This document shows positions 15,193-64,000 of a stretch of 64,000 nucleotides of DNA, in pieces. The notes beneath the pieces are model-generated. The model searched no databases. It was not told the DNA's origin and was given only the letters and a program-made list of their open reading frames with translations. Both the position numbers and the translations under genes were made by a program. Within the stretch, counting starts at the first letter, position 1. Each line of letters starts with the position of its first letter. The DNA is from an uncultured Gammaproteobacteria bacterium (lineage in GTDB: Bacteria; Patescibacteriota; Microgenomatia; Levybacterales; GWA1-39-11): the NCBI GenBank assembly GCA_964641355.1, contig CAZXND010000002.1, positions 70,615-134,614 on the forward strand. Reading direction: 5' to 3'.

Positions 15193-15199
15193 ATTGAAG

Positions 15200-17262: not shown

Positions 17263-17901
17263 CTACATCGCTCCCTTACCTGAGAGCATAGCAAATGGGG
17301 TACGAGCTATTATCCATAGATCGTAAAAAATTGAACGCTTCTTTGCATATGAAGCATCAAGCTGAATCCTCTTATCAAAATTTATTTCACTTCTTCCGGT
17401 AACTTGCCATACACCTGTAATACCTGGTTTTATCGAAAGTACAATCTTAACTGCATCTTTCGTATTTGGGTACTTTACCTGTTGTTCTCGAAGCTCATCA
17501 AGATAATAGGCCCTAGGACCCACAATGCTCATCTCCCCCCTAAGGACATTGAAGAATTGAGGTAGTTCATCAAGCGAATACTTCCTGATAAATTTTCCCA
17601 CTCCAGTAATTCTCGGGTCTCGCCTTAATTTATAACCACTTTTTTTGTATTGTTCATATAACTTAGCAAATTCAGGATCAGTCGTTAAAAGTTCATGAGC
17701 ATTCTTCACCATAGAACGAAACTTATACATCCTAAAAAGTTTTCCATTCTTACCAACTCGAGAAGGAGTATCCGCTAAGATAGGACCGGAGGAATTTAAT
17801 TTAATAGCTATAATTGTAAGAATAAATATTGGAGAAAAGAAGGTTATAAGGGTAATAGATAAAATAATATCAAGCAATCTTTTTGCAAGAATGTATAGCA
17901 T
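17263..17901 (-). CDS. Initiating polyprenyl-phosphate sugar-phosphate transferase (bacterial sugar transferase family, small PglC/WbaP-C-terminal type)
   Basis: 212 aa. N-terminal re-entrant helix, then DELPQFFNVLRGEMSIVGPRAY, the signature of the bacterial sugar transferase (monotopic PGT) family. Confidence 0.8.
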   Translation of the reverse strand: MLYILAKRLLDIILSITLITFFSPIFILTIIAIKLNSSGPILADTPSRVGKNGKLFRMYKFRSMVKNAHELLTTDPEFAKLYEQYKKSGYKLRRDPRITGVGKFIRKYSLDELPQFFNVLRGEMSIVGPRAYYLDELREQQVKYPNTKDAVKIVLSIKPGITGVWQVTGRSEINFDKRIQLDASYAKKRSIFYDLWIIARTPFAMLSGKGAM

Positions 17902-17924
17902 ATGAATATTGTAACAGAAAGAGT

Positions 17925-18998
17925 TTAGGTAATATTCTCGTGTTCAGTACCGCTTAAGTTTTCTACGAGTTTTTTAATCTTTGGAACAGAATTCTTGGGA
18001 CAAACCAAAATTACATCTTCTGTATTAATTATTATTGACTCATTAAGATCGATTCCAACAATTAATTGATTCGTGAAATTGAAAACCAGGGAGTCTCGAG
18101 AGTCTTCAATAAGTACTTTCCCTTTAGTTACATTCTCATCGGCTGTATTACTCAATGCTTCTTTAAGCGCTTCCCATGCGCCTATATCGCTCCATCCAAT
18201 ATCAACAGCTATGACTGATATGTTATCAGGGGTAAATTTCTCAAGAATAGCATCGTCGAAACTTATTTTTTCTAGGGCTGGGTAAACAGCATCAAGAGTC
18301 TCTTCAAAGTTATCTGCATTAACAATTGATTGTAGATCTTGATGCATTTGCGGAGCAAATTTTTCAAACTTATCAAGTAGGTAAGAGGGTGTAGTTACAA
18401 AATAACCTAAGTTCCAGACATAATGCTCATCGCCAAAGAAATCTTCTGCTTGGGAAAGCTTGGGACGATACTTCAACTTTTTAAATTTAAAAAGAGTCAT
18501 TCCATTTTCATCTCTAAGCTTATCACCACATTCAATCCAACCCACGTTTTGATTTGCAAATCTTGGTTTTTGACCAATAAAAACAAAGTCCGATTCGCCA
18601 TTCTTAATTGATTTTTCAGCAGCAAGAAGAACATTCTGAAACGTTTCAACATTTCTAACCATATGATCACTCCAAATAATTGCCATGGGCTCATTTGGAC
18701 TTCTTTTTGCAAGAATCGAAGTCGCAAGTCCAATCGCAGGTCCAACGTCTCTCATTTCTGGTTCAAAAATGAAATTTTCTTGAGGAATTTCTGGGAGTTG
18801 CTCAGCAACAATATCTTTATACCTTTTCCCTGTTGCCACATAAATATCAGAGGGAGAAAAAGCACCTTTAAGCCTATCTACTGCTTCCTGTAGAGTGGAC
18901 TTATCTCCAATTATCTTTCCGAATTGTTTCGGAGTATTTTTTCTTGATAACGGCCAGAGACGTGTACCAACTCCGCCGGCAAAAATAACTACTTTCAT
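17925..18998 (-). CDS. Sugar-1-phosphate nucleotidylyltransferase, mannose-1-phosphate guanylyltransferase (ManC)-like. Could alternatively be the heptose-1-P guanylyltransferase HddC.
   Basis: 357 aa. MKVVIFAGGVGTRLWPLSRKNTPKQF is the GxGxRL nucleotidyltransferase motif as in ManC/GMP. No C-terminal PMI domain. Confidence 0.7.
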   Translation of the reverse strand: MKVVIFAGGVGTRLWPLSRKNTPKQFGKIIGDKSTLQEAVDRLKGAFSPSDIYVATGKRYKDIVAEQLPEIPQENFIFEPEMRDVGPAIGLATSILAKRSPNEPMAIIWSDHMVRNVETFQNVLLAAEKSIKNGESDFVFIGQKPRFANQNVGWIECGDKLRDENGMTLFKFKKLKYRPKLSQAEDFFGDEHYVWNLGYFVTTPSYLLDKFEKFAPQMHQDLQSIVNADNFEETLDAVYPALEKISFDDAILEKFTPDNISVIAVDIGWSDIGAWEALKEALSNTADENVTKGKVLIEDSRDSLVFNFTNQLIVGIDLNESIIINTEDVILVCPKNSVPKIKKLVENLSGTEHENIT

Positions 18999-19067
18999 AC
19001 GTTTTCTTTCAAAATAAATACTTTAAAACTTTATAAAATAATAACAGTTTTGAATATTTTCTAAAAC

Positions 19068-20147
19068 TTATAATTCTTCTCCAATTACTTTGAGTAATTT
19101 TTTTTTGAATGACTCAAAAGAAAATCTTTCAGAATTTGTTATCGATTCCTGACTATTATATCGCCTGTGATCAAATTTTTCCAATTTTGATATTAATGAT
19201 AGTACATCCTGTTTCCTAAAAAACTCTCCTGTTACTCCCTCTTTCACTATTTCAAGCGCTCCACCTGCCTTATATGCAATCACCGGAGTACCGAAATATT
19301 GAGACTCGGCTATCGCAAGTCCAAAGTCTTCTTCTCCTGGAAAAATAAGAGCTTTGCTTCTTCGATATAACTCTGAAAGAGACTCATCGCTTACAGCACC
19401 TAAAAACTCTATGTTTTTTTTTGCTTTTGATTTAAAATAGTCAACATCTCTACCACTTCCCACAACTTTAAGTTTATAACCTAGTTTATTGAATGCTTCA
19501 ATCGCCAATTCAACCTTTTTGTACGGGGTTAGCCTCGAGAGCCGAGAAACCAACAAAAAATAATCACCCTTTGTGGTAGGGGAACTTTTTTTTCTATCTA
19601 TGGTAAGTGGAGGATATATAACTTCTGAATCTCTCCCATAATATTTTTTAACCCTCTTCTTCACCTCATTTGAGATTGAAATGATTTTATCTGGACGTGA
19701 AGAAGCAACTCTGTCCCATTCACGAAGATATGAAACAAGAGGGTAAGAAGAATAAGCAAGTAAATTGTTTGAAAAATATTCTTTATATCCGCTCCACAAA
19801 TAACGTGTAGGAGTAAGACAGTAACAAATATGTTTCGTTGAAGGTTTTGTAATTATTCCTTTTGCATACTCACTTGTAACCGAAATTACAAGGTCATATT
19901 CTGAAAAGTCTAACGACTCAAAAGCAAGAGGCATAAGCGGAGCAAAGAATTCATGTTTTCCAGGTGCACCAGGAATTCTTTGTAAAAAAGATGTCTTTAC
20001 GTTAAATACGTTTGCCCAAGGTGCACTTTTCTTATTGTAAACAGAAGTAAAAAGTGGCGCTTCGGGAAAAATTTTATGGAGAGCCAAAAGGACTCTCTCC
20101 GCTCCCCCCCATTTGTTCACTCGATCGTAAACTAGTGCTACTTTCAT
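19068..20147 (-). CDS. Glycosyltransferase family 4 (GT-B, retaining)
   Basis: 359 aa. N-terminus MKVALVYDRVNKWGGAERV. C-terminal EX7E-type motif GEEDFGLAIAESQYFGTPVIAYKAGGALEIV. Confidence 0.8.
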   Translation of the reverse strand: MKVALVYDRVNKWGGAERVLLALHKIFPEAPLFTSVYNKKSAPWANVFNVKTSFLQRIPGAPGKHEFFAPLMPLAFESLDFSEYDLVISVTSEYAKGIITKPSTKHICYCLTPTRYLWSGYKEYFSNNLLAYSSYPLVSYLREWDRVASSRPDKIISISNEVKKRVKKYYGRDSEVIYPPLTIDRKKSSPTTKGDYFLLVSRLSRLTPYKKVELAIEAFNKLGYKLKVVGSGRDVDYFKSKAKKNIEFLGAVSDESLSELYRRSKALIFPGEEDFGLAIAESQYFGTPVIAYKAGGALEIVKEGVTGEFFRKQDVLSLISKLEKFDHRRYNSQESITNSERFSFESFKKKLLKVIGEEL

Positions 20148-21246
20148 AGATTTCTAAAGTCTGCTGAGCCATTTTTCTCCATGAATAAGACTTGGCCAAA
20201 ATTTTGCCTAATTGTATATGATTTCTTATTTCAATACTAGAGAGTTCCAAAACTTTTTCCATCGCATTCCTCACACTAAGCTCATCGTGAGGATCAAAAT
20301 AAACGAGGGGAATATCACGACATATTTCTCTGAATGTCGGAATATCAGATAAGATAATTGGCGCTCCACTACCCATCGCCTCAAGTGCTGGAAGCGCAAA
20401 GCCTTCAGATAAAGATGGAGAAATGAAAGCAATACACTTTTTATACAATATTGATAACTCTTCATCACTAACATCCTTTGCAAAAACCAAAGAAGAACTA
20501 AGAGCTTTTGCAACAGGAGACTCTTCAAGACGTGAATAGAAAAAATCTTTTTTTCCCGCTAAAACTAATTTTACGCTCGGATTTTGAGACGATAATCTTA
20601 AAAAAGAATTAATTAAACATTCTAAATTTTTATGTGGATATGCGTTGCCTACATATAGAAAATACTTTTTAGATTCGATTCCTAATTCACTTAGAACCTC
20701 TGTATTACTTCCTTTAAGCAAGGTTACGCCTTCTTTAATAACATGAATCTTTTTCTGATCCACTTTATTTAATTTCAAAACCTCGTCTTTAACTGAGTTT
20801 GAGGGGACTATTACGGCAGTCGAGTTTTTCAACGCTTTTGAAATTACATATTTATAAGCAAATTTTTTTGCTATGAAAAAAGGGAATGGAAGAGTTGAAG
20901 CCTGACCAGTATAGCTTGAGTAGATTATCAAATCATGCATGGTAACAATAAATGGACGCTGATATTTTATGGGCACTGAGAAATATGGAAAGTGTACAAG
21001 GTCAAGACTTTCCTTCTCAATTATTCCTGGGAGAAGTCTCTGCTCATCAATCGAATGCCAACGAATATTAGCTTCTACTGTTTTCCATTTAAAAAAATTA
21101 GCTCTGAGATAATCTACGTCTTTTTTTAGGGCGAATAAAATATAGTCATTCTGGTCATCAACATCATAAAGATTTTCGACAAGATTTCGAATATATCTAC
21201 CAACTCCAGTTTCTCTCCAAAGTCTAACATCTATACCCAAGCGCAT
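20074..21246 (-). CDS. Glycosyltransferase family 4
   Basis: 390 aa. C-terminal SLSEGFALPALEAMGSGAPIILSDIP donor-binding motif. Its 3' end overlaps the next GT4 gene by 74 nt. Confidence 0.8.
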   Translation of the reverse strand: MRLGIDVRLWRETGVGRYIRNLVENLYDVDDQNDYILFALKKDVDYLRANFFKWKTVEANIRWHSIDEQRLLPGIIEKESLDLVHFPYFSVPIKYQRPFIVTMHDLIIYSSYTGQASTLPFPFFIAKKFAYKYVISKALKNSTAVIVPSNSVKDEVLKLNKVDQKKIHVIKEGVTLLKGSNTEVLSELGIESKKYFLYVGNAYPHKNLECLINSFLRLSSQNPSVKLVLAGKKDFFYSRLEESPVAKALSSSLVFAKDVSDEELSILYKKCIAFISPSLSEGFALPALEAMGSGAPIILSDIPTFREICRDIPLVYFDPHDELSVRNAMEKVLELSSIEIRNHIQLGKILAKSYSWRKMAQQTLEIYESSTSLRSSEQMGGSGESPFGSP

Positions 21247-21247
21247 A

Positions 21248-22180
21248 TTAATTTCTCATTCTTTCTATCTTATATTTAAGATCAATCCCAAATAAAACCA
21301 ACCAATTAATTAAACTCGGATATTTATCCTTATAGTGCTTATTATAAAAAACTCTCATTGCTGAAAATCTTGCCTCCATAGCTTTCTTCCTTGTCTCTTC
21401 TGTCGCATTTGTTATATGTTTTGATACGTCTTTTATCCCTCCAGACACTCCTTTATAGTGTAAAATTTTGAAATCCGGAACAAAAAAGATTTTCCAACCA
21501 CTTTCTTTCAATCTATAACAAAAGTCTATGTCATCACCGTACCAAAAAAAATCTTCATCCCACCATCCAACCTCTTCACCAGCTGTTCTTCTTACCATCA
21601 TGAATGCGCCTGCTAGTGAATCTATTTCATGAATTTCGTTTAAGCTTAAAAATGAGAAACTATAACCAGAGAATATCTTGACTTTAGGAAATACTCTTTC
21701 AAGACCAGAGAAGTGAGAAAACGCTCGCCAAGGAGTAGGAAATCCTCGATGAGATGCGTCATCAATCATTCCGTTAGGAAGCTCAATATAACAAGTAGAT
21801 GCGCCTGCTTTTTCATTACTTTCCATAAAACTAACCACTCCATTAATCGCATCTTCATAAACAACCGTGTCAGAATTAAGAAATAAAACATATTTACCTT
21901 TTGATTTTAATACTCCAATATTATTAGCTTTAGAAAACCCATAATTTTCTGCATTTTTTATAATGGTCAAACCGATTTCTTTACTTTTCTTTGCAAACTC
22001 CTCAAGAGCTTCTACGCTTCCATCCGATGAATTGTTGTCAACAACAATTATTTCAGCTTTTATTTTCTTAACTGTTTCACAAATAGACTTAAGACAATTT
22101 ATCGTAAAGTCCTTAGTATTAAATGAAACGATAATAATAGATAGATCCAAAGTATTTAACCTCCTTAGATTTCCTTCCAC
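21248..22180 (-). CDS. Glycosyltransferase family 2
   Basis: 310 aa. LSIIIVSFNTKDFTINCLKSI...VVDNNSSDGS. GT-A fold with DxD. Confidence 0.8.
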   Translation of the reverse strand: MEGNLRRLNTLDLSIIIVSFNTKDFTINCLKSICETVKKIKAEIIVVDNNSSDGSVEALEEFAKKSKEIGLTIIKNAENYGFSKANNIGVLKSKGKYVLFLNSDTVVYEDAINGVVSFMESNEKAGASTCYIELPNGMIDDASHRGFPTPWRAFSHFSGLERVFPKVKIFSGYSFSFLSLNEIHEIDSLAGAFMMVRRTAGEEVGWWDEDFFWYGDDIDFCYRLKESGWKIFFVPDFKILHYKGVSGGIKDVSKHITNATEETRKKAMEARFSAMRVFYNKHYKDKYPSLINWLVLFGIDLKYKIERMRN

Positions 22181-23346
22181 ACCTTATTCATTTTTAAACC
22201 AATTTTTTCCCACGAATAATTTTCCTCAACAACTTTTCTTGCATTTTTAGTAATTCTATTACCAAGATCTTTACTGTTAAATAACTCATTTATTTTTTCT
22301 CTGAATTCTCGCCCGCTGCGTGCTGCAAGAAAATCCCTTCCGTCTATGACGGAAAGACCTGCCAACCTTTCGGCAAAAGCTACGATCGGTACCCCCATTG
22401 CCATTGCTTCAATAACTTTAAAATTAGTACCACCGCCGTACCTCACGGGAAAAACAAATATCTCTGATCTTTCATATACTGTCCTTATGTCGTCAATAAA
22501 TTCAATTATATTTATTCGTGGATCATATGGGATTGAGAGCTTCCTAGAGTTTTTTCCTATAATAGTTAGTGTTACATCTCTATCACTTATTTTAGAAAAA
22601 ACATTATCATAAAAAAACTTCATTGCATCAACATTGGGAAAGTAGGAAAAATTACCAACAAAGAGAAGATTTTTTCCAGTATACTCTTCGTTATTCTGTT
22701 TTAAAGGGAAATTATTAACATCGATTCCATTTTCGATAACATAACACGACTTATTCCTTTTATAAATGTAATCAGCCTCTTCGTTGGTCACTGCAATACA
22801 TGTGTCAGCTAATTTTATAAATTTTTCCTCTTCTGTTTTTATTGTCTTTGCTTGTTTAGCATAAAAAAATCTAGAAACAAAAGATGAAGCATTTCTGGAA
22901 TAGTCCTCGTACAATTTGTATTCTATGTTTTCTGTACCAAAAATTTGTTTAACAGAAAGCTCTTTTATTTTTTTAGATATATAAAAACCTGTATAAAAAG
23001 ACTCAAAGTGTACTACGTCTATTTTATCTCTTTTTATTTTTTCAATAATTTCTTTCTCTATCTCATCTTCATAATAAAGGTGCTTAAAGATTGAACTTGA
23101 TGGACTAAATGAAGAAACAAAACTTTTTGGACTTTTTGCTCTTTTCCTCTTAAAAGTTAGCACATCTTTTACTCCAATCTCTTTCATTTTTTCATGATCC
23201 TCTTTTCTAAATCCCTCGCGAGTAAAAGAAACTAAATGAATTTCCAAATCCTTTCCCCCAAATTTTATTAAGTTGTAAGCTCTATTTTTTCCTCCTGAGT
23301 TAGTAGGGTATGGAAAATCATAAGTTATAAAAAGAATTTTTTTCAT
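22165..23346 (-). CDS. Glycosyltransferase family 4
   Basis: 393 aa. MKKILFITYDFPYPTNSGGKNRAYNL N-terminus. C-terminal GGGTNFKVIEAMAMGVPIV. Confidence 0.75.
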   Translation of the reverse strand: MKKILFITYDFPYPTNSGGKNRAYNLIKFGGKDLEIHLVSFTREGFRKEDHEKMKEIGVKDVLTFKRKRAKSPKSFVSSFSPSSSIFKHLYYEDEIEKEIIEKIKRDKIDVVHFESFYTGFYISKKIKELSVKQIFGTENIEYKLYEDYSRNASSFVSRFFYAKQAKTIKTEEEKFIKLADTCIAVTNEEADYIYKRNKSCYVIENGIDVNNFPLKQNNEEYTGKNLLFVGNFSYFPNVDAMKFFYDNVFSKISDRDVTLTIIGKNSRKLSIPYDPRINIIEFIDDIRTVYERSEIFVFPVRYGGGTNFKVIEAMAMGVPIVAFAERLAGLSVIDGRDFLAARSGREFREKINELFNSKDLGNRITKNARKVVEENYSWEKIGLKMNKVWKEI

Positions 23347-24782
23347 TTTAATTTAAGTATTAAGTATGAAGAAGATGAAGCAACAGATTCGTACATAGTC
23401 CCGAAACCACTAAAATCATTTGGCGTAGGATTAGCAATTACAAGATAGGAAGCTCCCATTTTTATCATCTCATCTATTGACTTCTCAAAGGCTGCCCAAC
23501 CTCTTCTATTTGTTTGATAAAGGAATGTCGTGTCACCATCGTAAGGGGCGATAACCAAAGCATCTTTCGGCAAAATTTTATCAGCTTCTTTTCCAGCTTC
23601 GATTATTCCCCAATTATTTATATTGAAATAATCTCTTACTTGAAACCATGAAAAAGAAAACATAAAAACAGAAACAGTGAAAATGATTACATATGAGATA
23701 TATTTATTAACCCCACGTGCATTAGATATAAAGTAGTAAACACCACGAGACAAAAATATTGCGATAGTTGGAATTATAAGTATCTGATAATAATCATGTT
23801 GAACATTTCCCCTGGCAATTATAGTTAGATATAAAAGAGATGATACAAGAAATGAAATGAAGAAAAAGTAAGACTTTTCTGTTTCTCTTTTAATAACTCC
23901 GACAATTAAAAATACCACTCCAAAATATCCTAGTATTAATTTAGAAATTCTCTCAGCAAAAATCCAGTAAAAGAAAGCACCCTTAAAACGAATATTACCA
24001 CCGTTAAAAAGCCAATTAGATACCGGTACTCCCTCTGGAAATTGTTGCATCCAATTTCTCCATAAAAGGAGTGGAGTGACTGTTATAAATAGAAAAACCC
24101 ATAACTGCCATTTTTTAATAAAAGAATATCCAAAGCGAGATATTGTTAAATAGATAATTGGTAAAGTAAAAATTAAAGCATAAGGCTTAGCAAGAAATGC
24201 TCCCGAGGTAAACAAGATCGACAAAATGAAATAAATCCATTGATTACTTTTTTTCTCTTTATACCCCTCACTCCATAAGTCAAAAAATAATATTCCTCCG
24301 AGAATAAATGTCACCATTAGCTCATCTGGTAAAATAGCTCGACTATAATAAATAGAAAATGGCAAGAATGCGAAGAAAAAAGAAGATAAAAGTGCTTCAG
24401 CTATTGTTGAATGCTTCTTAACGATAAAAAAGATAAAGACGATTGATAGAATCGATTCAAAAATAATAACAAGCCTCCCCCATTCTTCAAGAGTAATAAT
24501 TCCAAAAGTTTTATATAAGAATGCTTGCTTTATGTTAAGGAGAGGAAATTCAACAAATCGCAAACCTTGGGGATTGTCAATACCAGATGGAACATTTGAT
24601 AGATCGTCAAACTTTGGATGAAGGACATCATAACCATTTTTTACAAAATTTCTTGAAACTGCAGACGTATCTACCTGTCTCCATGAATGCCAATCGGCAA
24701 TAGGATTATCGAATCTGTAGAGACGAACAAAAAACCCTAAAATAAGAATAGCGAGAAGGACAAGCCAATAAATTCTCCTCAT
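23343..24782 (-). CDS. Polytopic membrane protein, GT-C fold glycosyltransferase (ArnT/PMT-like)
   Basis: 479 aa with about 12 TM segments. N-terminal loop FDNPIADWHSWRQVDTS. Translationally coupled to the flanking GT4 and the large ligase-like gene. Confidence 0.5.
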   Translation of the reverse strand: MRRIYWLVLLAILILGFFVRLYRFDNPIADWHSWRQVDTSAVSRNFVKNGYDVLHPKFDDLSNVPSGIDNPQGLRFVEFPLLNIKQAFLYKTFGIITLEEWGRLVIIFESILSIVFIFFIVKKHSTIAEALLSSFFFAFLPFSIYYSRAILPDELMVTFILGGILFFDLWSEGYKEKKSNQWIYFILSILFTSGAFLAKPYALIFTLPIIYLTISRFGYSFIKKWQLWVFLFITVTPLLLWRNWMQQFPEGVPVSNWLFNGGNIRFKGAFFYWIFAERISKLILGYFGVVFLIVGVIKRETEKSYFFFISFLVSSLLYLTIIARGNVQHDYYQILIIPTIAIFLSRGVYYFISNARGVNKYISYVIIFTVSVFMFSFSWFQVRDYFNINNWGIIEAGKEADKILPKDALVIAPYDGDTTFLYQTNRRGWAAFEKSIDEMIKMGASYLVIANPTPNDFSGFGTMYESVASSSSYLILKLK

Positions 24783-24827
24783 GAAATCATTTTAACACTA
24801 GAAGCCCCAATACCAAAGCCACTGACC

Positions 24828-31099: not shown

Positions 31100-31173
31100 A
31101 TAACCAAATTTTACTCAATTTTTACCTAAGTAGCAAAAAACTATAATTATCTTATTACTATATAATATAAGTA

Positions 31174-32060: not shown

Positions 32061-32065
32061 ATACT

Positions 32066-33001: not shown

Positions 33002-33002
33002 G

Positions 33003-34028: not shown

Positions 34029-34035
34029 TGTGGAC

Positions 34036-35064: not shown

Positions 35065-35094
35065 GTTTAATTAATAAGTGATTATATCTGACGT

Positions 35095-41802: not shown

Positions 41803-41829
41803 GGATTGTGCTATTCTAAAAAAAATTAG

Positions 41830-48139: not shown

Positions 48140-48148
48140 TAGATTCTA

Positions 48149-52740: not shown

Positions 52741-52751
52741 TTTTTTTTCAT

Positions 52752-55430: not shown

Positions 55431-55469
55431 AAATTTGATTTTATATGATAAAGTATAGAATTATACAAG

Positions 55470-57273: not shown

Positions 57274-57620
57274 TTAAAATTTCCTTTCCTATTATTTTCA
57301 AGATTTTGAAAGTTTTTTTTTCTAAATTTAGACAAATTTCATTCAAAAACAATAAAATAAGAATAATTGGATTTTTTGAATTTCTTTTTTTAAACTTAAA
57401 TAAAAAAGTTAAGTCCACTATAAAATTTTTATTTACACTCTTTTTTACTAGCTTTAATAAATAATAGAATAGAATTAGGAAAATTAGTAACTGAAAAGTA
57501 AAAAAAATTCCTGTGTGATAAATTATTAAATCGTCAATAAAATACATATTAAATCTACAGCAACAAGTTTACCACGAGTAATTAGATTCCTCAAATTAGT
57601 GTTTAATTTTACATCCTATT

Positions 57621-58364
57621 ATGCTATCCTCTGTAAATAAAATGAAAACTCCTTACCAAAATTTTTATTCTAAAGTATATCAAAACAAAAATACATTTTT
57701 ATTAGACAAAAAGTGGCAGGAAGTTGTAAAAAAACGCTTAAGTATTCAATATTCTTCGAAAAGAAGAATTTTAGATATAGCATGCGGTGTAAGCACGTTG
57801 GGAATGATATTTGGGAGTAACATTTCAGGCCTAGAAATAAATCCCGAAGCAGTAAAAGTGCTTAGAAAATCGGGTATAAAAGTAAAAAAGGGTGATGTCG
57901 AAAAGAAATGGGACTTTCCAGACAATCACTTCAACATTGTAATAGCATCTCATATAATCGAGCATGTTGTTAATCCAGATCATCTAATCTCGGAGGCAAA
58001 AAGAGTATTAAAGAAAGACGGAATTCTGATAATTGCAACTCCAAATCTCGCCGCATGGTTTAATAGAATATTATTATTGTTGGGTTATCAACCCTTCTTT
58101 ACTGAAGTAAGCACTATTGATAAAACATTGGGTATAAAGTTTACAAGAAGATTAACCAAAAAAAGAGAGCCGCTAGGACATTTAAGGCTATTTACGCAGG
58201 GAGCGCTAAGTGATATTTTAGATCTTCATGGATTCAAAATTATTAAATTTTCCGGAGCAGAATTTTTGGGTTTCCCAAAACCAATAGATAAAGTTGATCA
58301 AATTATGTCAAAGTTTACTCCAATCGCGTCTACTTTCCTTGTATCTTGTAGAAAAAAAAGTTAG
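57621..58364 (+). CDS. Class I SAM-dependent methyltransferase
   Basis: 247 aa. ILDIACGVSTLGMIF motif I and IIASHIIEHV. Confidence 0.7.
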   Translation: MLSSVNKMKTPYQNFYSKVYQNKNTFLLDKKWQEVVKKRLSIQYSSKRRILDIACGVSTLGMIFGSNISGLEINPEAVKVLRKSGIKVKKGDVEKKWDFPDNHFNIVIASHIIEHVVNPDHLISEAKRVLKKDGILIIATPNLAAWFNRILLLLGYQPFFTEVSTIDKTLGIKFTRRLTKKREPLGHLRLFTQGALSDILDLHGFKIIKFSGAEFLGFPKPIDKVDQIMSKFTPIASTFLVSCRKKS

Positions 58365-59422
58365 ATATCAACATTACTTCTCAGAATTTTTATTTTTTTA
58401 ATGATCGTTCTAGCATCTTTTAATTCATACATCGTAATATAAATATTTAAAATACATTTTCTTAAAAACCTCAAAACAGTCGTTGGTGTAAAAATCGTTA
58501 AAAAATAATAAATGCAAAATTTCATACTAAATTTAATTTTAGGATCGAGTACCATAACTCTTTTCGCAATTTGATGTATATTCTCATTTCCAACCATTAT
58601 TTTTATCACCGGAAAGAGAGTTACAAAGTGAAACATTAATTGATTGCGAAGAAATTCCTGATAATATTCATCTTCCACTTTACTCTTTACAATTTCAAAA
58701 AAGTTTTCCGACTTAAGTTTTCCTTTTTTAAGTGAATATAGTGGGTGATGACCCACGCTATCATTCCTCCACTGAGACCAATGAGCAATAATAAATTGAT
58801 TTTTTAGGAATAGTCCTCCAAACTTTTTTGTTGAATAATACAGAAGATCTATCCATGGAGCTGGATCAGCATATACCACTTGTACATTTTTTGATAAATC
58901 ATTTTTTATAATAAGACCCGTCATAAAAAAAGGATCAGAATTAAGTATAAAAGAGAATACATCCTCTGAACTCCTATTCGCATTAAAATAATAATCATTT
59001 TCAAATGGTTTATTTACTTTGAAATTGAAAATCTTTTTTTCATCAGGAGACAGACATGTGTAATTTACTCTTACAAAGCCTGGACTATTTTTAATGATTT
59101 TTTTATGTATTTTATAAAGAGCTCCTGCATCTAAAAAAAAGTCGTCATCTGAATGGAGAAGAATATATTTTCCACTTGCATGCCCCATGACTTCCTTAAC
59201 GTTCAGACTGAAATCTATATTCGATTTATTTCTAAAATATCTTATCCTATTATCTTTTATGCTGAGCACCATCTTTTTCGTTTCATCTGTGGAAAAGTTA
59301 TCTGAAATAATTATTTCAAAGTCTTTAAAATTTTGCCTGCGAAGGCAGTAAATCGCGAATCTTAAATCTTTTACCCTATTAAAAGTAGGAATTACGATTG
59401 AAAAAAATGGTCTTTCTTTCAT
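58361..59422 (-). CDS. Glycosyltransferase family 2
   Basis: 353 aa. FSIVIPTFNRVKDLRFAIYCLRRQNFKDFEIIISDNFSTDET. Confidence 0.75.
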   Translation of the reverse strand: MKERPFFSIVIPTFNRVKDLRFAIYCLRRQNFKDFEIIISDNFSTDETKKMVLSIKDNRIRYFRNKSNIDFSLNVKEVMGHASGKYILLHSDDDFFLDAGALYKIHKKIIKNSPGFVRVNYTCLSPDEKKIFNFKVNKPFENDYYFNANRSSEDVFSFILNSDPFFMTGLIIKNDLSKNVQVVYADPAPWIDLLYYSTKKFGGLFLKNQFIIAHWSQWRNDSVGHHPLYSLKKGKLKSENFFEIVKSKVEDEYYQEFLRNQLMFHFVTLFPVIKIMVGNENIHQIAKRVMVLDPKIKFSMKFCIYYFLTIFTPTTVLRFLRKCILNIYITMYELKDARTIIKKIKILRSNVDI

Positions 59423-59493
59423 TGTTTACACAATATATCTCAATAGCTAAGATTGTCGAATAACATATGTAAATTCATTTAAAATTAATTTTC

Positions 59494-60726
59494 TTGATAT
59501 GCTATACTATCGCAAATATGCTTCGAGTTCCATACGCACTTTCTGTTTACGATAACAAAGAAATACAAGCGGTTGTTTCTGTACTTAAAGAACACAGATC
59601 TAACATGGGTATTGAGACTCAGAAGTTTGAGAAGGGAGTTGCAAAACTTTTTAATAAAAAATATGGAATAATGGTTAATTCTGGGTCTTCAGCAATACTT
59701 ATTGCATTAGAACTATTAAATCTCCCTAAAGGTTCTGAAATCATTACGCCGATTTTGACTTTCTCAACTACGGTTGCACCCATTGTTCAAAAAGGATTAA
59801 TTCCTGTTTTTGCAGACGTTGAGCCACAAAAATACACCATTAACGTTGATCAGGTTGAGTCTCTTATTACACCAAAAACTAAAGCACTATTTATTCCTTT
59901 ACTACTCGGAAATGTTCCTGCCTTGGATAGACTTAGAAAAATTGCAAAAAAACATAAGCTTTATTTTGTTGAAGATTCTTGTGATACCTTAGGAGCTAAA
60001 TACAATGGAAAAGAATCAGGATCATATTCAGACATATCTATAACTAGTTTTTTTGGATCTCATATTATCACTGCGGGAGGCAATGGAGGAATGATAATGG
60101 TAAACAGTAGAAAGTGGGCAGATAGGGCAAAAGTACTAAGAGGCTGGGGGAGAAGTTCGTCTTTATTTGGTGAGACCGAAGATATTAAAAAGCGTTTTAG
60201 TGTAAAGCTAGAAAATATACCTTATGATGCAAAATTTCTATTTGAAGAAGTAGGATACAATCTTCTTCCAAATGAAATGTGTTCAGCGTTTGGGAATATG
60301 CAGTTACTGAAACTTCCTAAATTTAGAAAGATAAGGGAAAAGAATTTTAATACACTTTATAAATTTTTTCAAAAATATGAATCCGTATTTATGCTCCCCA
60401 AGCAAGATAAAAAAGTTTCAACACAGTGGATTACTTTTCCTTTAACTATCAGAAACACCTCCCCTTTCACACGAATTGAATTGGTTACTTTCCTAGAAAA
60501 TAATAACATTCAAACTCGTCCAATTTTTACGGGAAATATATTAAAACAACCAGGTTTTAAAGATATCAATCACAGAAAAAATTCATCCGGATATCCGGCA
60601 ACTCAAGAAGTAATGGAGAGAGGATTTGTAATAGGATGTCACCATGGTCTTGAAAATAAACACATAGACAGGCTTACTGAGGTATTCTCGCTCTTTTTGA
60701 AAAGCAAAGGAGTTAAGAGTAGTTAG
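59494..60726 (+). CDS. PLP-dependent nucleotide-sugar 3-dehydratase of the DegT/DnrJ/EryC1 fold, ColD (GDP-4-keto-6-deoxymannose 3-dehydratase)/E1-like
   Basis: 410 aa. The active-site segment ITSFFGSHIITAGGNGGM has His where aminotransferases of this fold carry the PLP-binding Lys (SFxxxK). It closely parallels the E. coli ColD SFYSHHIATMEGG region as I recall it. N-terminus YGIMVNSGSSAILIALELL and C-terminus IQTRPIFTGNILKQ also resemble ColD. Confidence 0.75.
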   Translation: MICYTIANMLRVPYALSVYDNKEIQAVVSVLKEHRSNMGIETQKFEKGVAKLFNKKYGIMVNSGSSAILIALELLNLPKGSEIITPILTFSTTVAPIVQKGLIPVFADVEPQKYTINVDQVESLITPKTKALFIPLLLGNVPALDRLRKIAKKHKLYFVEDSCDTLGAKYNGKESGSYSDISITSFFGSHIITAGGNGGMIMVNSRKWADRAKVLRGWGRSSSLFGETEDIKKRFSVKLENIPYDAKFLFEEVGYNLLPNEMCSAFGNMQLLKLPKFRKIREKNFNTLYKFFQKYESVFMLPKQDKKVSTQWITFPLTIRNTSPFTRIELVTFLENNNIQTRPIFTGNILKQPGFKDINHRKNSSGYPATQEVMERGFVIGCHHGLENKHIDRLTEVFSLFLKSKGVKSS

Positions 60727-61693
60727 TTTTATTGGCATAAAACCAATCAACTGTTCTTTTAATCCCCTCCTCCAATGAATAATTCGGTTTCCATTTCAGA
60801 ATTTTTTTAGTATGAGATAAATCTGCTTCGAGCATTTGAGGTTCTAGATACCTTGCCTGCCTCTTCACGCCACCCCATACAACCTTTGACTTACTGTTAG
60901 TAGTTTTAAGAATAGTCTCGACGATATCCTTTATAGTATTTTGCTTTCCTGACCCAATATTAAAAATTGAACCATTAGGCACTTTAATCATTGTAGCTTG
61001 GATATAAGCATTAATCACATCCTCAATAAAAATAAAATCCCTAACACTTTGAGGCGTTGAAACTTTTATCGGCCTATCTTGAAGAACGTCTAATATTATT
61101 GATGGAATAAGTCTATACCCACTTTCATAATTCCCATAAGGGGTAAAAAGACGTAAAGTGATAATCGGCAGATTGCTTCTAATTGCTTCCTTTTTGCAAT
61201 AAAGTGAAACAGCTGACTTCACAACAGAATAATTATTTGTTGGTTCGAGATAATCTGTCTCCCTCATTTTATTTTTTTTACTTCCATATTCAAAACAACT
61301 TCCAGTATTAATAAATAGTTTAAAATCAATTTTTTTTGCCGCTTCAATTATATTGATAGTCCCTTTTAAGTTTACATCTATCATTTTATAGATATCATCT
61401 TCATGAGGTGGGATCCCATATGATGCTAAGTGAAAAATATAATCAGGATTACTTTTTTTTAACGCAAGAAAAATTGATTTATCCAAAAGGTTACCTTCAA
61501 AAATTCTAACTTTCGATTTAACTCCATTCAATCTCCAATTGAGATTTCTATCTCTAACAAAGATACTCACGTCTTCTCCCCTATTTACCAATTGGTGAGT
61601 AATATTACTTCCCACAAAACCAGTTGCTCCGGTAATAAAATATTTATTTCTCATACTGGAATAATGGCCAATTTGAATCTTTCTCTGAAACAA
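60713..61693 (-). CDS. NDP-sugar 4,6-dehydratase-like extended SDR (GDP-mannose or GDP-heptose 4,6-dehydratase candidate)
   Basis: 326 aa. KYFITGATGFVGSNITHQLVNRGEDVSIFVRD resembles the GMD-type N-terminus. TGSCFEYGS (S/T...E) and YSVVK (YxxxK) catalytic motifs. Confidence 0.55.
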   Translation of the reverse strand: MFQRKIQIGHYSSMRNKYFITGATGFVGSNITHQLVNRGEDVSIFVRDRNLNWRLNGVKSKVRIFEGNLLDKSIFLALKKSNPDYIFHLASYGIPPHEDDIYKMIDVNLKGTINIIEAAKKIDFKLFINTGSCFEYGSKKNKMRETDYLEPTNNYSVVKSAVSLYCKKEAIRSNLPIITLRLFTPYGNYESGYRLIPSIILDVLQDRPIKVSTPQSVRDFIFIEDVINAYIQATMIKVPNGSIFNIGSGKQNTIKDIVETILKTTNSKSKVVWGGVKRQARYLEPQMLEADLSHTKKILKWKPNYSLEEGIKRTVDWFYANKTNYS

Positions 61694-62183
61694 CTACGTT
61701 TTTCTTAATAGGCCAATCTATGTTAAAAAATGGATCATTCCATTTAAAACCTCTTTCATGTTTTGGAGAATAAAATGCTGAAACAGGATACTCAACTATT
61801 GAGTTATCCTCAAGCGCTTGAGCCCCATGAGCAACACCTTTTGGAACTAAAACCATAGTTTTACTTTTAGCGGATAAAACGTTTCCTACCCATTTACCAA
61901 AAGTTTTAGACTTAGGTCTAACATCTAACGCAACATCAAAAATAGAACCTTTTACACACTGTACTAATTTATCTTCTGATTTAGGTGGAACCTGCATATG
62001 AAGCCCTCTGATTGTTCCTGCCTTAATAGACATAGATCTGTTAATTTGAACTATTTCAAAATTAATTCCAAACTTTTTAAGCTCTTCAACATCATAAACT
62101 CTTTCAAAGTAACCTCTCTTATCGCTTTTACTTTCTATCTCAATTAAAAATACTCCATCAATTACAGTTTTACTAAATTTCAT
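61644..62183 (-). CDS. Cupin-fold NDP-sugar 3,5-epimerase (RmlC-like)
   Basis: 179 aa. KSDKRGYFERVYD...GTIRGLHMQVPPKSEDKLVQCVKGSIFDVALDVR matches the RmlC core (RGxF..., GLHxQ, KLVxCxxGxIxDVxVDxR). Confidence 0.8.
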   Translation of the reverse strand: MKFSKTVIDGVFLIEIESKSDKRGYFERVYDVEELKKFGINFEIVQINRSMSIKAGTIRGLHMQVPPKSEDKLVQCVKGSIFDVALDVRPKSKTFGKWVGNVLSAKSKTMVLVPKGVAHGAQALEDNSIVEYPVSAFYSPKHERGFKWNDPFFNIDWPIKKNVVVSEKDSNWPLFQYEK

Positions 62184-62191
62184 GGTGGGAG

Positions 62192-62866
62192 TTAACGAAA
62201 TGGAACCGCTTTGTTTTCATTAATGTCATTTTCCATCTCATCGTGTAAGTGCTTTGTTTTAGCAATCCATGCAGCGATTATATGATTCAGTATAAGCTGT
62301 ATATCTTCAACTGGTCCATAATGATTACTGTCTGCAATTAAAGGGTAATCTACTATTCCCCCAAGCTTACCACCAGTTTTAAATCCTAAGATACCAACAG
62401 TTATTGCATTGCATGATTTTGCATACTCAATCGCCTTAACAACATTAGGACTATTTCCACTCCCAGAAAGAGCAATAACAACATCATCCCTTTTTACCAA
62501 ATTTCTAAGTTGCTGTACAAATATATCGTCGAAGCTTAAATCGTTTCCAAAAGCTGTCATAATAGCAACATTATCTGTAAGGGAAATAACTTGAAATCTT
62601 CTTTCAGAATTATCATAAATTCTCCTAAGGGTTCCTTTTCCTAAATCGCATGCCATGTGAGAAGCTGTAGACGCACTTCCTCCATTACCTATTATAAATA
62701 CCTTTTTATCTTTTTTATAAGCCGTAACAAGCACATTCATTATCTCTGCAATTATACTTTTATCTATAGATAAAAGACACCTTACAATTTCGAAAATATA
62801 TGAATTAATAAAGTCAGAGGGGTCTAAACTAATATTTTTTTTATTTTCTACGTTTCTATTCTTCAT
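62192..62866 (-). CDS. gmhA: Sedoheptulose-7-phosphate isomerase (phosphoheptose isomerase, SIS domain)
   Basis: 224 aa. KVFIIGNGGSASTASHMACDL and VVIALSGSGNSPNVVKAIEYAK match the GmhA core (GNGGS...S-S-GNS). Confidence 0.85.
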   Translation of the reverse strand: MKNRNVENKKNISLDPSDFINSYIFEIVRCLLSIDKSIIAEIMNVLVTAYKKDKKVFIIGNGGSASTASHMACDLGKGTLRRIYDNSERRFQVISLTDNVAIMTAFGNDLSFDDIFVQQLRNLVKRDDVVIALSGSGNSPNVVKAIEYAKSCNAITVGILGFKTGGKLGGIVDYPLIADSNHYGPVEDIQLILNHIIAAWIAKTKHLHDEMENDINENKAVPFR

Positions 62867-63846
62867 TAATCAATAAATACTATTTTACTTCCCTGGGGTT
62901 CAAAGGAAAACTTTTGATAAATTAATTCTGGTAAAGCTTTAATAATTTTTTTATGCTTATCTTCTGGGGCATAAAATAAAAGAAATCCACCACCACCTGC
63001 ACCTAACAACTTCCCACCAATCGCACCACTTCTTATTGCTCTACTATACCAACTATTAATTTGTTCACTTGTGATTCCGTCTGCCATTTTTACTTTTAAA
63101 AACCAATTTTCATCAAGCATTTTACCAAAAGTGTCTAGGTTGTTAGTATTTAACGCTTTTTGCATTTTTTTTGCAATACCTACCATTCTTAACATAGTTT
63201 TTCTTTTTTTTTCAAAAGATGCCATCTCTTTTGATTGTTTACTTAAAATAGGATCTGAAGATCTTGTTATTCCCGTATAGAAAAGGAGTAGTCTTTTTTC
63301 TAATTTTTCTCTTGTTTCATCGGTACATATAATTGGATCTACAAAAACACTACCATTTTTATTAAATTGTAAGTATTGCATTCCTCCGTATGCAGCAATG
63401 TACTGATCTTGCTTTCCTATGGGCTTTTTTAATATATCTATCTCTATTTTACACGCCTCACGGGCAAGTCTTTCAGCACTCACATACTCACCTTTAAAGG
63501 CATAAAGAGCATTTAATAGCCCGACAACATAAGAACTTGACGATCCCATACCTGTTCCCTCCGACGGAACATCAGCAATAGAACTAATATGAATACCTTT
63601 TCTTATTCCCGTTAACTTTAAAGCTTCTCGTACTAAGTCGTTTTGAATCTCTGAGACCTTTGTAACCAACTCTGTTTTTGAATAATGAATAAAAATTCTT
63701 CCATCAAACTGTTTTTCAACAAATATATAAATATACTTATCAATTGCTGTTGTTACAACGCATCCAGAAGAATGTTTATAAAAAGAGGAAATATCACTTC
63801 CACCTCCAACAAAACTTACCCTCAGGGGAGTTCTTGATATGATCAT
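62866..63846 (-). CDS. hddA: D-glycero-alpha-D-manno-heptose 7-phosphate kinase (GHMP kinase family)
   Basis: 326 aa. MIISRTPLRVSFVGGGSDI N-terminus and GHMP motif PSEGTGMGSSSS. Directly adjacent to gmhA and gmhB. Confidence 0.75.
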   Translation of the reverse strand: MIISRTPLRVSFVGGGSDISSFYKHSSGCVVTTAIDKYIYIFVEKQFDGRIFIHYSKTELVTKVSEIQNDLVREALKLTGIRKGIHISSIADVPSEGTGMGSSSSYVVGLLNALYAFKGEYVSAERLAREACKIEIDILKKPIGKQDQYIAAYGGMQYLQFNKNGSVFVDPIICTDETREKLEKRLLLFYTGITRSSDPILSKQSKEMASFEKKRKTMLRMVGIAKKMQKALNTNNLDTFGKMLDENWFLKVKMADGITSEQINSWYSRAIRSGAIGGKLLGAGGGGFLLFYAPEDKHKKIIKALPELIYQKFSFEPQGSKIVFID

Positions 63847-64000
63847 AAGTATTTGGAAACAATCGAATATAAGTCGTTTTTTTTATTCACCAAAAATGTT
63901 TTACATCCAGCTTTTTTCCCGGAAATAATATCACGTTCGTCATCACCTATACAACAACTTTTATATAAATCGATGTTATATTTTTGCGCCGCCTGGAAAA
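63843..64000 (-). CDS. gmhB: D,D-heptose 1,7-bisphosphate phosphatase (HAD family), C-terminal part. The gene continues beyond the window end.
   Basis: Reverse translation gives ...FQAAQKYNIDLYKSCCIGDDERDIISGKKAGCKTFLVNKKN..., a HAD motif-IV region as in GmhB. Its TGA stop overlaps the hddA ATG (ATGA). Confidence 0.55.
   Translation of the reverse strand, partial: FQAAQKYNIDLYKSCCIGDDERDIISGKKAGCKTFLVNKKNDLYSIVSKYL

Follow-up and report, generated by a model that had tools for sequence, protein, structure and literature searches.

A predicted modular cell-envelope glycan supercluster with an array of AftD-like GT-C proteins in an uncultured member of the Levybacterales

The 64,000-nucleotide stretch of DNA analysed here (the window; positions 70,615 to 134,614 of contig CAZXND010000002.1, assembly GCA_964641355.1) comes from an uncultured bacterium of the Levybacterales, a lineage of the Candidate Phyla Radiation (CPR), and carries from position 17263 onward an almost unbroken run of glycan-related genes. 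A surface-polysaccharide gene cluster is as such already known, and an initial annotation of this DNA, made without database searches, described it essentially correctly. What is new is its scale for a CPR bacterium, with up to ten domains of the GT-C class of glycosyltransferases (GTs), a WaaL/Wzy-like protein that is predicted to be fused to a GT-C domain and is conserved across Levybacteria and, above all, a conserved, ordered array of Pfam-less AftD-like GT-Cs with dedicated small membrane partners. The evidence is computational throughout. Along the locus we distinguish a lineage-conserved cassette (module A, ~15.2-31.1 kb), the array of giant GT-C proteins (module B, 32-48 kb) and a region of sugar chemistry (module C, 48 kb to at least 82.9 kb).

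All open reading frames (ORFs) of at least 100 amino acids (aa) were scanned against Pfam, and informative ones against NCBIfam. Glycan-related families account for 37 of the 41 ORFs from 17263 to the window end. The stretch 17263-63846 is 97.9% coding, with 34 genes on the minus strand and 24 of 40 junctions overlapping (counted from longest-ORF starts), and the interval from 17263 onward makes up 73% of the window, much as annotated at first: about 40 packed or overlapping genes over some 70% of the window, glycan-related nearly throughout. The four ORFs outside any glycan family encode a metallo-beta-lactamase (MBL)-fold hydrolase, a 183-aa protein and a pair of small membrane proteins; this pair proved to be conserved partners of the giant GT-Cs. 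The interval 17263-64000 holds six full GT4 genes and one stand-alone GT4 N-domain gene, five GT2, two PMT/PMT_2 GT-Cs, two left-handed beta-helix (LbH) acyltransferases, four S-adenosylmethionine (SAM)-dependent methyltransferases, six short-chain dehydrogenases/reductases (SDRs), one RmlC-type cupin, one E1/ColD-type pyridoxal-phosphate (PLP) dehydratase, one small phosphoglycosyl transferase (PGT), one ManC-like protein, GmhA-like and HddA-like proteins, a 1050-aa Wzy_C-like protein and four large polytopic proteins without a Pfam family. The family models reproduce the earlier counts of GT4, GT2, LbH, methyltransferase, SDR, cupin, ColD-like and heptose genes and contradict none of the GT, SDR or methyltransferase calls. 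Two of the three ArnT/PMT-like GT-Cs proposed for the interval lie inside it; the third lies upstream and is probably this gene:

11006-12526, minus strand: PMT_2-like GT-C membrane protein, 506 aa, ~10 transmembrane (TM) segments (Pfam PMT_2 E 7.8e-5, 23.4 bits, under the 26.1 cut-off)

The first 17 kb otherwise hold a division and cell wall (dcw) cluster, a class II aminoacyl-tRNA synthetase, an OLD-family nuclease and RecO (Pfam), with this weak PMT_2 protein and a DUF4012 protein as the only glycan-linked candidates; the upstream part is thus ordinary housekeeping, and the enrichment in glycan genes is not a property of the whole window. To the right, an independent 77-kb contig continues past the window end, and the cluster runs at least 18.9 kb further. 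Genes at the right-hand limit of the data (window-equivalent 82,874) are still glycan-related, so the cluster size is a lower bound: at least 65.6 kb, from 17263 or further left to ~82,874, and at least 31.6% of its 207,840-bp contig. The boundaries first drawn, at 17263 and the window end, therefore have to be moved on both sides, as the left cassette includes the DUF4012 gene at 15200-17191. The locus would take up ~8.6% of a genome as large as the closed Levyibacteriota chromosome CP066685.1 (762,565 bp); the description of an extraordinary investment for a presumably reduced genome is plausible.

For comparison, all window proteins were mapped onto 72 loci from species-representative genomes; L-numbers below label these related loci or contigs. 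The nearest homologues of marker proteins come from metagenome-assembled genomes (MAGs) of Levybacteria/Levyibacteriota, Gottesmanbacteria and other Patescibacteria. The best species-representative match of the 803-aa protein is just 47% identical, and the window's species is thus not a GTDB representative.

Module B comprises the following genes:

32066-33001, minus strand: SAM methyltransferase, downstream of the array (Pfam/NCBIfam)
33003-34028, minus strand: GT2 with one hydrophobic C-terminal segment, downstream of the array (Pfam/NCBIfam, TM prediction)
34036-35064, minus strand: SDR epimerase/dehydratase, downstream of the array (Pfam/NCBIfam)
35095-37128, minus strand: G677, predicted distant AftD-like GT-C, 677 aa, ~11 TM segments, a soluble domain and a C-terminal TM segment (hhalign to the family profile)
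37115-40765, minus strand: G1216, predicted AftD-like GT-C with a ~450-aa insertion in the extracytoplasmic domain (similarity to G803, motifs)
40740-41075, minus strand: s111, 111 aa, 3-4 TM segments, preceding G1216 (paralogue of s105)
41062-41802, minus strand: LbH acyltransferase with an N-terminal hydrophobic region, inserted within the array (Hexapep 49.2 bits)
41830-43134, plus strand: PMT_2-type GT-C, 434 aa, an opposite-strand insertion in the array, unrelated to the giants (PF13231 40.6 bits)
43131-43448, minus strand: s105, 105 aa, 4 TM segments, following G803 (TM prediction, paralogy with s111)
43441-45852, minus strand: G803, 803 aa, reference member of the predicted AftD-like GT-C family (model fold, motifs)
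45842-48139, minus strand: G765, predicted AftD-like GT-C paralogue, 765 aa, first gene of the array (similarity to G803)

The four giants have no usable match in Pfam (even at E values up to 1), NCBIfam or PDB sequences, save for a weak DUF6541 match of G677, and their identity therefore rests on fold comparison and a remote relative. They show 10-14 predicted hydrophobic segments, ~11 of them within the first 430 residues, followed by a soluble domain of 200-750 residues and one C-terminal TM segment. An AlphaFold2 model of G803 built with 45 homologues (pLDDT 87.2, pTM 0.89) has a polytopic N-terminal module with the GT-C helix arrangement and an extracytoplasmic part that combines a mixed alpha/beta domain with one beta-sandwich, and it ends in a single TM helix. 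Foldseek ranks AftD first among its structural matches (E 1.8e-7), then STT3, PglB, ALG12 and ALG9, and fold comparison with AftD aligns 603 residues. A relative from locus L068, 23% identical, passes the Pfam GT-C_AftD model PF11847 with 39.2 bits against a cut-off of 26. On this basis, the giants are best described as a Pfam-less family of AftD-like GT-C glycosyltransferases.

Two motifs recur in all four paralogues. An Asp (D41 in G803) within a GGD motif directly after the first TM helix is invariant in them and in the 45 aligned homologues, and a PGFxxFR motif lies near residue 365: G1216 carries GGD and PGFSMFR, G765 has GGD at 45 and PGFAMFR at 369, and G677 has GGD at 40-42 and PGFVFFR at 364. 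As judged from the sequence, the GGD Asp appears to be placed where the catalytic acidic residue of GT-C enzymes lies. Five residues of AftD have been shown to be essential, D41 and K361 among them (10.1101/2019.12.22.885152), and the similar numbering of the giants' motifs, compared by number only, suggests a correspondence. The WWDxG motif (WWD/E or W[WYF]D[YFW]G) is absent from the eight GT-C proteins of the window, and we rejected the idea that the giants are oligosaccharyltransferases.

G1216, G803 and G765 are 32-38% identical to one another at BLAST level; G1216 matches G803 with 38% identity across residues 12-612 and 42% across the C-terminal 130 aa, and G765 matches it with 32% over the full length. 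G677 has no BLAST-level relation and joins them at profile level (hhalign 96.7%, E 3.5e-10, 604 columns), so that of the four giant paralogues originally called, three are close and the fourth is distant. The 1050-aa and PMT_2 proteins were tried as further members and rejected (hhalign probabilities 0.7% and 0.2%). The family is large: a profile search of 1.84 billion cluster representatives returned 5,769 clusters at 50% identity with E<=1e-3 and 1,025 with E<=1e-30, in two size classes of ~800 and ~1200 aa, which NCBI names hypothetical proteins and, in one case, YfhO family.

The order of the array is conserved as well. G803, small partner, G1216 and G677 follow one another uninterrupted and on one strand in 17 of the 72 loci, often with G765 in front, in Levybacteria, Gottesmanbacteria and unclassified Patescibacteria (some of whose records wrongly carry the name "Gammaproteobacteria"), and at least two giants stand together in 37 of the 72. 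The window holds the full version, interrupted between s111 and s105 by the LbH gene and the opposite-strand PMT_2 gene. Its small membrane proteins belong to a family of ~105-125 aa with 3-4 TM segments that lies beside giants in every locus where it was detected; 33 such ORFs share SSD..F following the first helix, and TEKAAVW...Q(Q/K)W(R/K)E at the C-terminus. Neither s105 nor s111 matches a Pfam or NCBIfam model, GtrA, SMR and MATE included, and PDB sequences gave no usable match either. Of the 22 loci whose flank downstream of the G677 orthologue is long enough, 3 carry the SDR/GT2 pair there and 5 the methyltransferase.

Archaea hold relatives of the giants too, at 22-26% identity (L049, L056, L061, L074 and L075; three of the five full-length), in Methanococcoides, Methanothrix, Methanosarcinaceae, Methanoperedens and Bathyarchaeia. 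In Methanococcoides the relative lies directly downstream of homologues of two window GT2 genes (43% and 49% identity). These archaeal proteins may reflect an ancient family or inter-domain transfer.

Module A lies downstream of the array on the same strand:

15200-17191, minus strand: DUF4012 membrane protein, 663 aa, candidate left-boundary member (PF13196 82.7 bits)
17263-17901, minus strand: initiating polyprenyl-phosphate hexose-1-phosphate transferase, a small Bac_transf PGT of 212 aa (PF02397 202 bits)
17925-18998, minus strand: ManC-like mannose-1-phosphate guanylyltransferase (NTP_transferase and ManC beta-helix; TIGR01479 229.6 bits)
19068-20147, minus strand: GT4 (Pfam Glycos_transf_1/Glyco_transf_4)
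20074-21246, minus strand: GT4 (Pfam Glycos_transf_1/Glyco_transf_4)
21248-22180, minus strand: GT2 (Pfam Glycos_transf_2)
22165-23346, minus strand: GT4 (Pfam Glycos_transf_1/Glyco_transf_4)
23343-24782, minus strand: PMT/PMT_2-type GT-C, 479 aa, ~9 TM segments (PF13231 29.8 and PF02366 27.7 bits, both above cut-off)
24828-27980, minus strand: predicted 1050-aa fusion of a WaaL/Wzy-like N-terminal half and a PMT/STT3-like GT-C C-terminal half (model fold matches)
27977-28900, minus strand: GT2 with one C-terminal hydrophobic segment (Pfam, TM prediction)
28875-29426, minus strand: LbH acyltransferase (Pfam)
29419-30588, minus strand: GT4 (Pfam)
30566-31099, minus strand: stand-alone GT4 N-domain protein, 177 aa (Pfam Glyco_transf_4 only)

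Module A is a collinear cassette across Levybacteria, not a variable island. Read in the direction of transcription, its order is GT4 N-domain, GT4, LbH, GT2, 1050-aa protein, PMT, GT4, GT2, GT4, GT4, ManC, PGT and DUF4012, followed by RecO, and the whole of it is kept in the Levybacteria locus L089 at 27-69% identity (40-69% except for one GT4 and one GT2). There, too, the DUF4012 gene comes straight after the PGT in the same order and strand, at 51% identity, and the DUF4012-PGT junction is seen in three independent assemblies. In a Hainich groundwater MAG (L090) the order holds as far as the PGT at 40-73% identity, with the GT4 N-domain gene absent, two small ORFs inserted, a Wzy_C and TPR protein after the PGT instead of DUF4012, and the enolase, pyruvate phosphate dikinase (PPDK) and fructose-bisphosphatase (FBPase) genes abutting the cassette. 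L089 and L090 keep the order of the four cytoplasmic GTs (19068-23346); PMT-type orthologues (49-53% identical) follow the 1050-aa gene in L019, L089 and L090; and the GT2, LbH, GT4 and GT4 N-domain genes (27977-31099) recur as the same four in the same order in L019 and L089 (36-66% identity). The PGT scores 239-247 bits with the TIGR03025/WbaP C-terminal domain models.

The GT4 N-domain gene forms an ORF of its own immediately before a full GT4, an arrangement kept in L019 and L089 (55-58% identity); since other Levybacteria share the split, the gene truly stands alone and is no remnant of a pseudogene. Toxin-antitoxin-like genes (Gp49/HTH and DUF433/DUF5615) flank the orthologous module A in L090, at 3583-5580 and 18859-19505, and one of the two small ORFs inserted there weakly matches a retropepsin-like aspartic protease.

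The 1050-aa protein, annotated from the start as an O-antigen-ligase fusion, keeps that description: its structure model (pLDDT 72) matches both WaaL and GT-C, which points to the fusion of a WaaL/Wzy-like domain with a PMT-like GT-C, and its Wzy_C match (residues 222-286) falls below the Pfam cut-off. It has more than 1,400 full-length homologues; among the 120 matches listed, identity is 50-57%, and the annotation of several is O-antigen ligase family or includes PF04932. Fold and family assignments thus give eight GT-C domains in the window, and the extension raises this to up to ten in ~72 kb. As GT-C enzymes by fold, the giants and the fusion would, by analogy with known members of the class, point to a large extracytoplasmic stage that depends on lipid-phosphate sugars, a step beyond what was first proposed.

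Module C begins with a divergent operon and runs past the window end:

48149-49303, plus strand: GT4, divergent operon (Pfam)
49303-50133, plus strand: SAM methyltransferase, divergent operon (Pfam)
50126-50971, plus strand: GT2, divergent operon (Pfam)
50954-51910, minus strand: RmlD-like reductase (rmlD 118 bits, under the equivalog cut-off)
51874-52740, minus strand: methyltransferase (Pfam)
52752-53696, minus strand: SDR (Pfam/NCBIfam)
53677-54504, minus strand: divergent SDR (Pfam/NCBIfam)
54465-55430, minus strand: GDP-L-fucose-synthase-like SDR (Fcl 207 bits, under the equivalog cut-off)
55470-56732, minus strand: GT4 (Pfam)
56722-57273, minus strand: 183-aa protein with a single N-terminal TM segment and no usable match (Pfam, NCBIfam, PDB)
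57621-58364, plus strand: methyltransferase (Pfam)
58361-59422, minus strand: GT2, 353 aa (Pfam)
59494-60726, plus strand: sugar 3-dehydratase dependent on PLP or pyridoxamine phosphate, E1 (RfbH/DdhC)/ColD type (DegT 271 bits)
60713-61693, minus strand: SDR, 4,6-dehydratase/epimerase type (Pfam/NCBIfam)
61644-62183, minus strand: RmlC-type 3,5-epimerase cupin (rmlC 184.6 bits, above the 155.75 cut-off)
62192-62866, minus strand: GmhA-like sedoheptulose-7-phosphate isomerase (gmhA 101 bits, cut-off 209)
62866-63846, minus strand: HddA-like heptose-7-phosphate kinase (HddA 151 bits, cut-off 600)
Just beyond the window end: HddC-GmhB fusion, 395 aa (NTP_transferase and HAD)

Orthologues of the divergent operon (48149-50971), 52-66% identical, adjoin G765 in L007 and L015, and homologues of module C genes recur in relatives in differing combinations around the array. 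The GDP-heptose domain set (GmhA, HddA, GmhB, HddC) is complete, with all scores under equivalog cut-offs. The 3-dehydratase scores 345 bits with RfbH (cut-off 423), is nearest in the PDB to E1 (3bcx, E 3e-68) and then ColD (E 1e-48), and carries an SFFGSH motif with His190. We take His190, as placed by eye, to stand at the position of the PLP lysine. In Campylobacter jejuni, GDP-3,6-dideoxyheptose is made with a 4,6-dehydratase, a PLP-dependent C3-dehydratase, a C5 epimerase and a C4 reductase (PMC10440746), and the block 59494-63846 with the next two genes appears to match this enzyme logic from GDP-heptose to a 3,6-dideoxyheptose. The Fcl- and RmlD-like reductases, four methyltransferases, a C-methyltransferase and two LbH proteins predict further 6-deoxy, methylated and acylated sugars. 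The methylated, acylated, deoxy-sugar-containing glycan forecast earlier fits the four methyltransferases, two LbH proteins, 3-dehydratase, RmlC and six SDRs.

Beyond the HddC-GmhB fusion the extension holds further SDRs, GT2s and GT4s, a GFO/IDH/MocA oxidoreductase, a sugar C-methyltransferase (Methyltransf_13/14), a cupin and a second DegT-fold protein. A Wzx-type MOP flippase follows at window-equivalent 78713-80032 (PF01943 44.4 bits, cut-off 28.2; PF13440 37 bits, cut-off 23). The impression that the locus lacks Wzx and a clear export route was therefore right for the window; ~15 kb past its end the flippase is present. After it come a PTPS_related membrane protein, which we take to be GT-C-like, and the start of an MptA_B-family protein. 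The second DegT-fold protein, with His-His where the PLP lysine would be expected, lies at L079 7842-11633 (window-equivalent ~71.2-75.0 kb) beside a TylC3-like C-methyltransferase (Methyltransf_13/14), a small cupin and SDRs, a neighbourhood that, judged by its genes, suggests a separate pathway to a branched-chain deoxy sugar.

How would these parts act together? We consider it likely that they form a cell-envelope glycan supercluster of separable modules, in which Wzx/Wzy-type assembly is combined with extensive extracytoplasmic glycosylation by GT-Cs, and we infer the following order of steps. The PGT would prime polyprenyl phosphate and ManC would supply GDP-mannose, from which, together with tailored sugars, the GT4 and GT2 enzymes and the LbH acyltransferase would extend a lipid-linked glycan in the cytoplasm. 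Wzx would flip the lipid-linked unit to the outer face, where the WaaL/Wzy-like domain would polymerise it or ligate it to an acceptor, and where the PMT-like GT-C and the 1050-aa fusion would polymerise, ligate or decorate the glycan. The AftD-like and PMT-like GT-Cs would extend or branch it outside the membrane from polyprenyl-phosphate monosaccharides, as Emb, Aft and Mpt do in mycobacteria; lipid-phosphate-sugar donors are assumed for the giants by analogy with every characterised GT-C. Module C would supply GDP-D-glycero-D-manno-heptose for conversion to 6-deoxy- or 3,6-dideoxy-heptose, and also fucose- or rhamnose-type 6-deoxy sugars and O- and C-methylated sugars. The modules may serve one polymer or several, and the acceptor may be a wall polysaccharide, a lipoglycan or a protein. 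What the analysis establishes is the gene content, the families and folds, the conserved order of the modules, the contiguity of the locus and the presence of Wzx.

Several results weigh against this reading. No polyprenyl-phosphate-sugar synthase could be assigned among the GT2s, which match generic models and, weakly, ArnC and PgfS (26-33 bits in NCBIfam; two of them carry one C-terminal hydrophobic segment), and no GtrA, SMR or MATE flippase for monosaccharide donors is recognisable. The GT2 (33003-34028) and SDR (34036-35064) were considered as the donor-synthesis pair of the array and rejected as more than a weak possibility, given their presence in just 3 of 22 loci and no GtrB/ArnC assignment in NCBIfam. 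The matches in the 83 kb seen include no Wzz/polysaccharide co-polymerase (PCP) chain-length regulator, LytR-CpsA-Psr (LCP) ligase or ABC exporter. Confidence in the 1050-aa model is moderate, its Wzy_C match is sub-threshold, and the sugar-nucleotide enzymes score under equivalog cut-offs, which leaves their substrates as guesses. Finally, relatives have the modules 6-15 kb apart or beside core metabolism genes, and this separation leaves the functional coupling between modules unproven.

That last point bears on the initial view that one dedicated island makes a single, very elaborate polymer. The genes are contiguous, densely coding and mostly co-oriented, one PGT and one Wzx occur in the 83 kb seen, and in L089, as in the window, a giant paired with a small partner immediately precedes module A. 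Against this, the GT-C array and module A are ~6 kb apart on the single contig represented by L007/L090, where module A sits by enolase, PPDK and FBPase, and ~15 kb apart in MFOZ01000019; module C homologues surround the conserved array in differing combinations; and GC content steps down from 33.2% in module A to 30.5% in modules B and C (the dcw flank at 1-10.4 kb has 36.1%, with 33.2-33.3% at 10.4-31.9 kb, 30.5% at 31.9-64 kb and 32.3% overall). Two separate 3-dehydratase pathways and about ten GT-Cs also exceed the usual needs of one repeat unit. We regard the single-polymer view as doubtful: the locus is a juxtaposition of a conserved cassette, a conserved GT-C array and variably combined sugar-nucleotide, GT and methyltransferase genes, parts that relatives carry as separable modules.

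The main rival to polysaccharide assembly is protein glycosylation, in which the 1050-aa protein would act as a PglL/PilO-type O-oligosaccharyltransferase onto an S-layer protein or pilin and the GT-Cs would O-glycosylate proteins directly. PglL/PilO-type enzymes belong to the Wzy_C family, CPR cells have been reported with S-layers and pili, and both modelled proteins have PMT, STT3 and PglB near the top of their structural matches. The eight GT-C domains nevertheless lack the WWDxG of STT3, PglB and AglB, the giants' best match AftD builds polysaccharide and their remote relative passes the AftD model, no candidate gene for an S-layer protein or pilin acceptor lies in the 83 kb examined, and for four to five tandem paralogues whose soluble domains are large and lectin-like, building a polymer is a better fit than modifying single protein sites. 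We judge protein glycosylation unlikely.

Could the locus instead be a recently acquired mobile or horizontally transferred island? The lower GC of 31.9-64 kb relative to the dcw flank and the remote full-length relatives of the giants in methanogenic and other archaea would fit, yet the window holds no tRNA, integrase, insertion sequence (IS) element, long repeat or Rfam element, many Levybacteria and Gottesmanbacteria genomes show vertical conservation of gene order in both module A and the GT-C array, and the same RecO/DUF4012 junction is present in L089; we rejected this very improbable origin. An assembly artefact joining several loci deserves next to no credence: the end of one independent 77-kb contig, at 41485, falls within the LbH gene and near paralogous sequence, yet other independent contigs (L086, L087) bridge 29377-42217, and independently assembled Logan contigs from six runs (SRR8893623, SRR8893624, SRR29948353, SRR29948355, SRR29948356 and ERR7569997), recovered through exact-protein look-ups, tile 13122-64000 and beyond without misassembly (13122-22657, 15154-27901, 22629-31383, 29377-42217, 41485-55852, and 52866-64000 and onward), with overlaps 99.67-100% identical by BLASTN and 733-6,748 bases long at four junctions.

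The modular supercluster can be compared with known systems. AftD itself carries three carbohydrate-binding modules (CBMs) and a C-terminal helical bundle that binds acyl carrier protein (ACP) (10.1101/2019.12.22.885152), whereas the G803 model has one beta-sandwich and a single C-terminal TM helix. The window proteins do not belong at sequence level to the Emb/Aft families that serve mycobacterial and corynebacterial lipomannan, lipoarabinomannan (LM-LAM) and arabinogalactan. The mycobacterial set taken for comparison comprises ManC, GT4 Pim enzymes, Ppm1, the GT-Cs MptA and MptB, EmbA/B/C, AftA-D and the small Rv3789. Unlike that assembly, the CPR locus has initiation by a Bac_transf PGT and a Wzx flippase, and its Pfam matches over 83 kb include no DprE1/E2- or UbiA-type donor gene, although no search was targeted at them.

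With Wzx/Wzy clusters for O-antigen, capsule or S-layer glycans the locus shares a PGT, sugar-nucleotide genes, GT2s and GT4s, acetyl- and methyltransferases, Wzx and a predicted Wzy_C/WaaL-like protein. It is several times their usual size, has no Wzz/PCP match in the window or the 18.9-kb extension, has a predicted fusion of Wzy_C to GT-C, and has about ten GT-C domains where such clusters usually have none or one. A small multi-TM protein gene adjoining a GT-C gene recalls three-component systems (GtrA/GtrB/Gtr*, and GT136 for pentofuranose; PMC11127046) and the addition of side chains to Gram-positive wall polysaccharides, in which, as would be the case here, the GT-C adds sugars to an exported glycan from a polyprenyl-phosphate monosaccharide; the present locus differs in that no GtrB-type synthase or GtrA/SMR/MATE flippase was identified and in having four tandem GT-Cs of 677-1216 aa, not one of 400-550 aa. 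The GDP-heptose pathways of the C. jejuni capsule (PMC10440746) offer counterparts to the predicted GmhA, HddA, HddC/GmhB, the 4,6-dehydratase-type SDR, the PLP-dependent C3-dehydratase, the cupin epimerase and the SDR reductases; here the 3-dehydratase is nearer the CDP-hexose enzyme E1 than ColD, HddC and GmhB are fused, and scores stay under equivalog cut-offs.

We tentatively propose, as an idea that is possible and short of probable, that the (G765)-G803-small partner-G1216-G677 array is a CPR machine, mostly of Microgenomates and with remote archaeal relatives, that polymerises and branches a wall- or lipid-anchored polysaccharide wholly outside the membrane: a functional counterpart of the Emb/Aft arabinan machinery, drawn from the same GT-C stock. 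The TEKAAVW...QQWRE proteins would then be a new class of obligate partner, either a flippase for lipid-phosphate sugars or a GT-C subunit. If so, some ultra-small episymbiotic bacteria would build their outermost layer mainly by GT-C chemistry.

CPR bacteria, or Patescibacteria, are thought to live attached to host cells with minimal biosynthesis. To our knowledge their surface coat is essentially unknown and the lineage is not yet open to culture study, and we found no specific description of CPR, Levybacteria or Microgenomates glycan loci or GT-C arrays in the literature. Roughly a twelfth of a genome sized like that of the closed relative would go to glycan assembly. The giants, their small partners and the WaaL-GT-C fusion are testable targets that bear on CPR envelope chemistry, on attachment to hosts, on variation in phage receptors, and on how far extracytoplasmic polysaccharide synthesis of the AftD/Emb type has spread in evolution outside Actinobacteria.

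Some smaller observations concern the remaining genes. Between modules A and B lies a gene with no evident glycan role and no homologue among the 72 related loci:

31174-31839, plus strand: MBL-fold hydrolase (Lactamase_B_3 89.5 bits)

Upstream of the locus, a plus-strand OLD-family nuclease of defence type (8720-10399; AAA_15/AAA_21 ATPase with an OLD-like TOPRIM) stands between the aminoacyl-tRNA synthetase and a DUF5667 protein. A plus-strand 430-aa protein (13316-14608) with a signal-peptide-like N-terminus stands between the weak PMT_2 protein and RecO; it has no match in Pfam, NCBIfam or PDB, and its GQS motif near the N-terminus recalls, as we read it, SGNH or sialate-O-acetylesterase-type esterases. 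GC skew is negative nearly throughout the window, matching the minus-strand gene bias.

Within module C, the 183-aa gene lies directly downstream of, and overlaps, the GT4 gene at 55470-56732; a 40%-identical homologue in L015 lies directly upstream of the orthologous GT4, in the opposite order. The GT2 gene at 58361-59422 has a poly-T tract at ~59141 that reads T8 in the window and T9 in a contig from SRR29948353 (L003 10103-11165), where the longer tract splits the 353-aa ORF into ORFs of 103 and 262 aa; slipped-strand switching of the gene on and off could explain this, as could an assembly error in the homopolymer.

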